Of a stretch of 4,066 nt of DNA, positions 2,780 through 4,066 are shown one piece after another; position 1 is the stretch's first letter; each line of letters begins with the position of its first letter. The stretch is from a virus (lineage: Duplodnaviria > Heunggongvirae > Uroviricota > Caudoviricetes), in the IMG/VR virus record IMGVR_UViG_2534681940_000043; one strand, written 5' to 3'. The notes beneath the pieces were generated by a model that saw nothing but the letters and a program-made list of their open reading frames with translations, was not told the origin of the DNA and searched no databases. Both the position numbers and the translations under genes were made by a program.

Positions 2780-4066
2780 ATGAGTAACGCATCATACCCG
2801 ACAGGCGTTGAAAACCATGGAGGATCACTCCGTATATGGTTTCACTATAATGGCAAACGTGTCAGAGAAAACCTCGGTGTTCCTGACACAGCCAAAAACC
2901 GGAAGATCGCTGGTGAACTTCGCACTTCCGTTTGTTTTGCAATCAGAATGGGGAGTTTCGACTACGCCGCGCAGTTCCCTAATTCCCCTAACCTGAAACA
3001 CTTTGGTCTGGGAAAAAGAGAGATAACCGTTAAGGCACTTTCGGAAAAATGGTTGGACCTTAAGAAAATTGAGATTTGTGCGAATGCACTTAACCGTTAC
3101 CAGTCAGTAATTAAAAACATGTTACCAATGTTAGGTGAAAAAAAACTGGTTTCATCCATAACAAAAGAGGATTTACTTTTCGTAAGGAGAGATTTGTTGA
3201 CCGGTTACCAAAAGCTTTCTAATGGAAAGACTTCTTCCATAAAAGGGCGCTCAGTGGTCACGGTAAACTACTATATGACAACCATAGCTGGAATGTTTCA
3301 ATTTGCAACAGATAATGGTTATACCTCAGGAAACCCATTTAACGGTCTGGCTCCCTTAAAAAAGTCCAAGGTAAAACCAGATCCTCTCACCCGTGACGAA
3401 TTTATTCGTTTTATTGAGGCTTGCCGTCATCAACAAACAAAAAACCTGTGGATTCTCGCTGTATACACGGGTATTCGTCACGGGGAGTTGGTATCGCTGG
3501 CATGGGAAGATATAGACCTTAAAGCAAGGACTATAACCATCCGTAGAAATTATACAAAACTTGGCGAATTCACTCCACCAAAAACCGATGCAGGCACCGG
3601 AAGGACAATTCATCTGGTTCAACCAGCTATTGATGCTCTTAAAAGCCAGGCGGAAATGACCATGCTTGGAAAGCAACATTCTGTAGAGGTGAAGCAGAGG
3701 GAATATGGGAGAACTGCTGTGCATAAATGCACTTTTGTTTTTAGTCCTCAGGTAACAAAACAGCAGCAGTTGTCCGGACCTCACTACAAGGTTGACTCCA
3801 TCAGGGAGTCATGGACAAGTATCTTAAAACGCGCAGGTCTGAGACACAGAAAATCGTACCAATCCAGGCATACTTATGCATGCTGGTCACTTGCCGCAGG
3901 AGCTAATCCTAGTTTTATCGCAAGCCAGATGGGCCACACAAACGCACAAATGGTATTCAATGTTTACGGAGCATGGATGAAAGACAACAATCACGAACAG
4001 ATAGAACTCCTTAACAAAAGACTATCTGAAAGTGTCCCATGTATGCCCCATAAGAAAGTTGGGTAA
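2780..4066 (+). CDS. int: Tyrosine-type site-specific recombinase / phage integrase (lambda-family, with N-terminal arm-type DNA-binding domain)
   Basis: 428 aa. N-terminus PTGVENHGGSLRIWFHYNGKRVRENLG matches the arm-binding N-domain pattern of enterobacterial prophage integrases. Catalytic domain shows box I Arg (GIR233HGE), beta-hairpin Lys (PPK268TD), box II SR363HTYACW, His386 (QMGHT) and the Tyr396 nucleophile (NVY396GAW; codon TAC 3965..3967). Stop TAA 4064..4066 is the window end. Confidence 0.92.
   Translation: MSNASYPTGVENHGGSLRIWFHYNGKRVRENLGVPDTAKNRKIAGELRTSVCFAIRMGSFDYAAQFPNSPNLKHFGLGKREITVKALSEKWLDLKKIEICANALNRYQSVIKNMLPMLGEKKLVSSITKEDLLFVRRDLLTGYQKLSNGKTSSIKGRSVVTVNYYMTTIAGMFQFATDNGYTSGNPFNGLAPLKKSKVKPDPLTRDEFIRFIEACRHQQTKNLWILAVYTGIRHGELVSLAWEDIDLKARTITIRRNYTKLGEFTPPKTDAGTGRTIHLVQPAIDALKSQAEMTMLGKQHSVEVKQREYGRTAVHKCTFVFSPQVTKQQQLSGPHYKVDSIRESWTSILKRAGLRHRKSYQSRHTYACWSLAAGANPSFIASQMGHTNAQMVFNVYGAWMKDNNHEQIELLNKRLSESVPCMPHKKVG

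Follow-up and report, generated by a model that had tools for sequence, protein, structure and literature searches.

Tyrosine integrases of the IntBPP-1 subgroup carry a DUF3596-type (PF12167) arm domain, occur in phages of Gammaproteobacteria, include the integrases of Shiga toxin (Stx) phages and of Gifsy-2, and show weak conservation of the first histidine of the catalytic pentad (Smyshlyaev et al. 2021, PMC8138268). In IntDes this histidine position is occupied by a tyrosine (PMC8138268), and the first histidine is thus not strictly defining. The gene mlrA (yehV) is a described insertion site of Stx phages, cited for BP-4795 and VT1-Sakai (PMC8065619), and insertion into mlrA abolishes or limits curli and biofilm formation (literature including PMC8309913 and PMC8065619). 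The integrase gene analysed here (int, 2780-4066, + strand) closes a stretch of 4,066 nucleotides from a Caudoviricetes virus (IMG/VR record IMGVR_UViG_2534681940_000043), hereafter the window. It encodes a 428-amino-acid heterobivalent tyrosine integrase (Int) of the IntBPP-1 subgroup, of the kind carried by mlrA/yehV-integrating lambdoid prophages. With high confidence, int is the integrase of the VT1-Sakai/BP-4795/YYZ-2008 lineage of lambdoid Escherichia coli prophages, targeting mlrA/yehV. The gene is intact and of an ordinary, previously characterised kind; its active site is typical of the subfamily, and its target has been mapped.

The open reading frame (ORF) of int was unbroken over 428 codons, its TAA stop forming the last three bases of the window, and was assigned to PHROG 1 (integrase). 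Across all 1287 bases, int was 98.8-99.8% identical to the int genes of VT1-Sakai (Sp15; H0070/ECs3013), BP-4795, YYZ-2008, phi330 and PhiR5_1, with BP-4795 at 98.8% and the other four at 99.7-99.8%. The few substitutions relative to VT1-Sakai included one at the Int C-terminus (KKVG in the window, KKAG in VT1-Sakai). DNA copies with 100% identity were found in nine complete E. coli genomes (e.g., CE10 and AR_0013), and copies of at least 95% identity in 461 complete E. coli genome records. The order xis-int was common to the window and VT1-Sakai-type phages, whereas the early-region genes upstream of window position 469 differed. The yehV-inF primer (ECs3013, 'yehV right junction' polymerase chain reaction), whose sequence is published in Appendix A of PMC8309913, gave a single exact match in the window (3691-3715, + strand), none being expected by chance. 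Source records named the protein 'DUF3596 domain-containing'; Int itself received no NCBIfam equivalog name, all Xer-type matches being sub-threshold.

The attachment site of these prophages lies immediately 3' of int and within mlrA. In the VT1-Sakai record, each end of the prophage bears an annotated attachment site of 20 bp (CCTGTCACGTTACGCGCGTG), and yehV is described as 'divided by the insertion of prophage'. This core begins 39 nt past the int stop in every relative examined, and in the prophage records of VT1-Sakai and E. coli CE10 a 38-nt spacer is followed by the core in yehV/mlrA. At the left prophage end (attL), the first 15-16 codons of mlrA precede the core, of which 20-21 bp are shared with the right end (attR), while the bacterial site (attB) of K-12 holds a single copy over mlrA codons 17-23. 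The int-spacer-mlrA junction, probed with 300 bp across its three parts, was present in 458 of 5426 complete E. coli genomes, a number that nearly matches the 461 records holding int copies; the 100% identical copies in CE10 and AR_0013 adjoin mlrA. The original prediction had placed the phage attachment site (attP) just 3' of int and looked for a direct repeat marking its core; both were recovered in the relatives.

A tRNA or tmRNA 3' fragment had also been proposed as a sign of the integration target. Many lambdoid and P4-like integrases target tRNA genes, and a tRNA/tmRNA gene could then be the true target, with the adjacency of mlrA secondary. Neither the 5 kb downstream of int in CE10 nor the attP regions examined in three phages contained a tRNA or tmRNA, and no Rfam family matched in the window; the duplicated core falls in mlrA codons 17-23 at either end of the prophage and is single in K-12 mlrA, and the mlrA junction recurs in nearly as many genomes as int itself. 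A tRNA-type target is therefore almost certainly wrong for this integrase, and the predicted target is the protein-coding gene mlrA/yehV. In CE10 (locus 6323-7009), the Prokaryotic Genome Annotation Pipeline annotates a complete 'MlrA' of 228 amino acids whose start codon, an ATC, shortly precedes the att core; in reality this is the 3' remnant of mlrA, which has lost its promoter and its initial 15-16 codons, and with them part of the helix-turn-helix.

The catalytic residues listed in the original prediction were found as claimed, with exact numbering, by motif reading and alignment. They comprised R233 (codon 3476-3478, motif TGIRHGE), K268 (3581-3583, PPKTD), R363 (3866-3868, SYQSRHT), H386 (3935-3937, GHTNAQ) and the nucleophile Y396 (3965-3967, FNVYGAW), all on the + strand. 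All five aligned with their counterparts in Tn1549 Int, XerD and XerA, giving Int the catalytic set of tyrosine recombinases. The first histidine of the RKHRH pentad was the exception, its column being occupied by Tyr360 (codon 3857-3859, + strand, motif SYQSRHT). In a phmmer comparison with Protein Data Bank (PDB) sequences, SYQSRHTY aligned with HAMRHTF of Tn1549 Int, and a 105-relative profile set the family motif 'pyqtRHTyAs' against 'sPHvLRHaFAt' of XerD, 'tPHvLRHTFAt' of XerA and 'tpHamRHTFct' of Tn1549 Int. Because of these alignments, Y360 is assigned to the first-histidine position of the box II H-x-x-R, as had been proposed, and R363 to the second arginine.

Conservation was counted among diverse relatives of Int. 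An exhaustive HMMER search through 1.84 billion cluster representatives yielded 183 proteins with E <= 1e-30, and the 104 listed hits of at least about 370 amino acids (27-56% identity), together with the query, gave a sample of 105 sequences. The column of Y360 held tyrosine in 82 of these, followed by N (9), K (4), H (3), G (3), R (2), I (1) and M (1). The catalytic columns were conserved at 91-99% (R233 in 96 sequences, K268 in 104, R363 in 104, H386 in 103 and Y396 in 104), and R363, H364, K268, H386 and Y396 were each found in 103-104 of the 105. As judged from this alignment, tyrosine at the first-histidine position is the family consensus. Since weak conservation of the same histidine has also been published for IntBPP-1, Tyr360 is not unusual, and the label 'non-canonical' once given to box II finds no support in this subfamily. 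Int agrees with the subgroup in its arm domain, its occurrence among Gammaproteobacteria phages including Stx phages and its weak first histidine, and no feature distinguishing it from IntBPP-1 was found; PMC8138268 reports a weaker histidine only, while the counts obtained here display a tyrosine majority. Y396 serves as the nucleophile, helped by R233, K268, R363 and H386, and a catalytic role of Tyr360 is putative, being read from the sequence. Telomere resolvases also carry a tyrosine at the first-histidine position.

Canonical tyrosine recombinases display RKHRH plus Y, and many O157 prophages at mlrA/yehV have been reported as truncated or non-Stx remnants (PMC8309913), so that Tyr360 could be taken as the mark of a decaying or catalytically impaired integrase in a cryptic prophage. 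Such an impairment is highly improbable given that tyrosine prevails among cluster representatives of only 27-56% identity, where histidine is confined to three, that weak conservation of this histidine is a trait of the whole subgroup, and that R363, H364, K268, H386 and Y396 are conserved at 98-99%. The int ORF is moreover intact, int genes 99.7-99.8% identical to it belong to phages whose records name a host for propagation (K514 for phi330, E. coli C for PhiR5_1; also YYZ-2008), and the same int-mlrA junction is carried by 458 genomes.

Int displayed the domains expected of a heterobivalent integrase. The N-terminal arm-type DNA-binding domain (Arm-DNA-bind_2, PF12167) spanned 2798-2989 on the + strand (residues 7-70; Pfam E 2.1e-24, 85.7 bits against a cut-off of 22), and formed a three-stranded sheet (residues 10-35) and a helix (38-57) in an AlphaFold2 (AF2) model. 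The core-binding (CB), SAM-like domain (3026-3364, + strand, about residues 83-195) was matched weakly by Phage_int_SAM_3 at residues 83-131, under the Pfam cut-off of that family; this region of the family profile aligned to the CB domains of Tn1549 Int and XerD and to CB domains solved by nuclear magnetic resonance, and its modelled helices lay at residues 84-95, 101-118, 129-141 and 159-178. The Phage_integrase catalytic domain (PF00589) covered 3386-3967 on the + strand (residues 203-396; Pfam E 4.7e-18, 66 bits against a gathering cut-off of 27.1). The AF2 model, built on the family alignment, reached a predicted local distance difference test score (pLDDT) of 93.6 and a predicted template modelling score (pTM) of 0.85, and showed extra strands at residues 257-258, 264-265, 300-305 and 312-317. 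Foldseek gave a probability of 1.00 to Tn1549 Int, lambda Int, XerA, IntI4, XerH and Cre, with Tn1549 Int and full-length lambda Int at the top.

Both of these integrases resembled Int in part. Lambda Int shares the three-domain heterobivalent organisation, its full-length chains being among the top Foldseek matches (402-422 aligned columns), and its locus likewise has xis immediately upstream of int, attP immediately 3' of int, arm-type sites over the int 3' end (the lambda record annotates an Int binding site overlapping it) and, by our reading of the core, a presumed inverted repeat around a 7-bp spacer. However, lambda Int is only 16-18% identical, carries an arm domain of another Pfam family than PF12167 and has His308 where Int has a tyrosine; the arm-site sequence differs (GYCCCAT for the window), as does the excisionase (DUF1233 in the window), and lambda targets the intergenic attB between gal and bio rather than a protein-coding gene. 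Tn1549 Int (PDB 6emy, 6emz, 6en0 and 6en2) is the best solved relative over the CB and catalytic domains, with profile E-values of about 2e-34 to 2e-33 and template modelling scores of 0.75-0.79 on the target. It is 18% identical to Int, possesses the canonical histidine in H-x-x-R, was crystallised as a construct without the arm domain, and serves a conjugative transposon with relaxed target choice.

Comparison with phage Stx1_14040 (LC567819; alignment A5, locus L006 1501-2847 and locus L009 280-525), whose intR product integrates into yecE, as its flank confirms, displayed a recombination joint within int. Bases 1-296 of int matched intR at 295 of 296 positions, while bases 297-1287 matched at 720 of 991 (72.7%); the mismatches fell at nt 78, then at 297, 298 and from 300 onward. 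The joint therefore lies between int nt 296 and 297 (window 3075-3076, + strand), in codon 99, and in the loop after the first CB helix of the AF2 model. Near-identity continued upstream of int through xis (about 98% identical). Downstream, identity extended along the distal attP arm from the right half-site of the core as far as dinI, the two attPs agreeing from GCGTGACGCAAC onward past the core, bar one 11-bp arm unit. The cores were similar (GTCACaTTAACTGCGTG vs GTCACGTTACGCGCGTG) and the arm-site doublet in the int 3' end was the same, whereas Stx1_14040 differed from int nt 297 on, in the left core half-site and overlap, in its yecE target, and in having two rather than three distal arm units.

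On this evidence int is a recombinant, in which xis and codons 1-98 form a module near-identical in a yecE-targeting phage, and the remainder, with the left core half-site and the overlap, is a diverged module that accompanies the different target. A mosaic origin had been suspected from base composition; it is the identity break at 3076 that shows int to be mosaic. The diverged block of about 1.05 kb (int codons 99-428, proximal arm, left core half-site and 7-bp overlap) is delimited by the joint at 3076 within int and, at its other end, by the crossover region of attP; it looks like a self-contained targeting module and fits the known modular logic of lambdoid integrases. That it is a portable 'targeting cassette', whose exchange, possibly mediated by Int between heterologous att sites, retargets a phage from yecE to mlrA, is an unlikely proposal. 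Such an exchange is inseparable from ordinary homologous recombination combined with selection acting on the overlap, since any point of the identical DNA rightward of the final mismatch could be the right-hand joint.

The organisation of attP was reconstructed from VT1-Sakai attR and attL, because phi330 holds the core in tandem. In the 'complete phage genome' of vB_EcoS_phi330 (PV189401.1), the 20-bp att core occurs twice in succession (locus 3326-3365), which looks like an artefact of joining prophage attL and attR ends rather than a native attP. The rebuilt core, GTCACG-TTACGCG-CGTGAC, is a perfect inverted repeat of 6 bp with 7 bp between its arms, and the spacer TTACGCG is the likely overlap. 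In Stx1_14040, the attL and attR cores differ by one base, just left of the equivalent TTAACTG, so that strand exchange would lie rightward of this position.

Arm-type sites had been expected, with the core, beyond base 4066; this was right for the core, whereas two candidate arm sites lie inside int. This candidate pair (TGTCCCATgtATGCCCCAT, 4033-4051, + strand) consists of two GYCCCAT units 11 bp apart (4034-4040 and 4045-4051), over int codons 419-424. In phi330, five GYCCCAT units were the only matches in 5287 bp, all on one strand with 11-bp phasing, two of them in the last int codons and three about 140-170 bp past the core; 2 of 200 shuffles reached five matches. The pattern of the 19-nt doublet was also present, in the same-strand orientation, in the second attP arm of VT1-Sakai/phi330 (three units), of Stx1_14040 (two units) and of mEp460 (207 bp downstream); the loci examined contained no further copy. 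It was conserved while the neighbouring alignment columns diverged, and its two types of location were shared by Stx1_14040 and mEp460, the Int of the latter being 62% identical. The number of distal units differed by an exact 11-bp indel, with three 11-bp units in VT1-Sakai/phi330 (locus 1186-1215) and two in Stx1_14040 (locus 374-392), arm-site number thus varying by slippage of the repeat unit.

Following this arrangement, the N-terminal domain of Int would bind the arm-type GYCCCAT repeats, and the core-binding and catalytic domains the inverted core sites GTCACG and CGTGAC flanking TTACGCG. Together with Xis, encoded just upstream, and host factors, Int would recombine attP with the identical 20-bp sequence in mlrA codons 17-23, and integration would split off the first 15-16 codons of this curli and biofilm regulator. 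The attP core would start 39 nt past the window end. Beyond position 4066, the expected sequence would be the spacer AATAAAAACTTGCAAAATCA(G/A)TTAGTTTACCCTTAAT and then CCCTGTCACGTTACGCGCGTG, followed by GCAGAGGCGTTACGG of mlrA in a prophage or by ACGCAACATTTTTAAAAATCG in a phage attP.

Four points weigh against parts of this account. The window ends at the int stop, its own att site and flank lying outside, so that the target assignment rests on the 99-100% identical copies. The arm sites, core half-sites and overlap are candidates read from sequence. Conservation over the arm sites could be driven by the protein rather than by the DNA, because the (V/A)PxMP(H/Q) tail encoded there is conserved as protein down to 47% identity. 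Lastly, an hhalign comparison of the family profile with lambda Int (overall probability 98%) set H364, and not Y360, opposite lambda H308. This register, shifted by four residues, was rejected since R363 is present in 104 of 105 relatives and is placed at the second arginine by the XerD, XerA and Tn1549 alignments; it would also put Ala367 opposite R311, the invariant second arginine.

Further repeats were observed around attP. The sequence TCGAYGAANWTCG occurs three times in the distal attP arm of phi330, between the core and the arm repeats (locus 3384-3396, 3446-3458 and 3456-3468, two of them 10 bp apart), and by analogy with lambda X1/X2 the DUF1233 excisionase is a candidate to bind its copies. 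In phi330/VT1-Sakai, the interval from the int stop to the att core contains an inverted repeat of 12 nt (AGGGTAAAATAA / TTAGTTTACCCT, with a loop of 16 nt; phi330 locus 3281-3320). It spans the int stop, its left arm reaching window positions of about 4060-4066, where the window allele differs (GTTGGGTAA), and it may serve as terminator, as processing hairpin or as a site for a host factor.

The centre of int was AT-richer than its surroundings, as had been noted from inspection, though only at the borderline of chance. The guanine plus cytosine (GC) content was 0.386 at 2990-3450, against 0.458 in the rest of int and 0.469 at 1-2779, and the lowest 200-bp value of the window (0.335) was found at 3045-3244, within the CB domain. 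As a scan statistic, this trough was matched by 5.5-6.7% of 2000 triplet shuffles (p about 0.06); the dip is real but borderline, and composition, not convincing by itself, was rejected as evidence for mosaicism, which is drawn instead from the identity break. The A8 run (3138-3145, + strand), also within the CB domain, is the sole homopolymer of at least seven bases in the window; it is ordinary coding sequence (GAA AAA AAA, Glu-Lys-Lys) and is not kept as a run in aligned relatives, where GAAAAACG, CCTGGCAG and GAAAAAAAT are read instead.

Acquisition of the segment from a foreign donor of lower GC would account for such a compositional island. GC fell at all three codon positions (GC1, GC2 and GC3) at 3045-3244, the dip starts near the joint at 3076, and at 3050-3230 the window allele (0.31-0.36) was AT-richer than those of Stx1_14040 (0.37-0.44) and Ss-VASD (0.40-0.47). 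Yet the segment could be aligned as core-binding domain, free of gaps and of any inserted block, to every relative, the break at 3076 parts two homologous int alleles rather than unrelated DNA, and no second joint was seen near 3450 in the comparison with Stx1_14040. In every relative, conservation of Int was lowest in the CB domain, so that drift in such a loosely constrained domain rich in Lys, Asn and Ile suffices to explain the AT-richness, and a foreign origin of the segment is very improbable. The whole segment aligning as core-binding domain, int appears to contain no foreign AT-rich insert; of the earlier suggestion, the mosaic origin stands and its compositional basis does not.

The gene preceding int, xis (2492-2746, + strand), encodes an 84-amino-acid excisionase of the DUF1233 family (Pfam PF06806, E 2e-29; PHROG 539, excisionase), its stop lying 33 nt upstream of the int start. 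Its counterpart is annotated xis or xisR in VT1-Sakai and CE10, and its product is the predicted partner of Int. No sigma-70-like promoter was found in 2300-4066, and the four terminator-like hairpins detected in this interval, against 2.0 expected, were all within int and were treated as chance. An antisense 142-amino-acid ORF (3356-3784, - strand) had no match in a scan limited to NCBIfam and was treated as a shadow ORF.

Upstream of these genes, the window displayed other features. Among the complete E. coli genomes and phage records searched, coverage of the window at a single place reached 87% at most. Bases 1-468 formed a separate mosaic block, containing a gene 3' end that matched the PHROG for deoxyribonucleoside 5'-monophosphate phosphatase. 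A 68-amino-acid ORF (1802-2008) matched only the first 16 positions of DUF551 and looks like a truncated or recombined gene of the ead/DUF551 type. An ORF of 27 codons (MSWPDAIVTLGVVFAAAFVVFSICRWG, 2005-2088, + strand) overlaps the stop of the preceding ORF through ATGA, has AGGAGG 7 nt upstream and probably encodes a small membrane peptide; a diverged counterpart, starting with MNWPEAF, is present in Stx1_14040.

Beyond correct annotation of the gene, these results matter little. A prophage in mlrA/yehV, often a Stx1-converting one, can be recognised by this int allele, and insertion at this site already serves O157 typing. The subfamily tyrosine does not indicate decay, so that intact copies should not be called pseudogenes on that ground. 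The joint at codon 99 clearly exemplifies lambdoid phages keeping the module of arm-binding domain, Xis and arm sites while swapping the core-reading part of Int.

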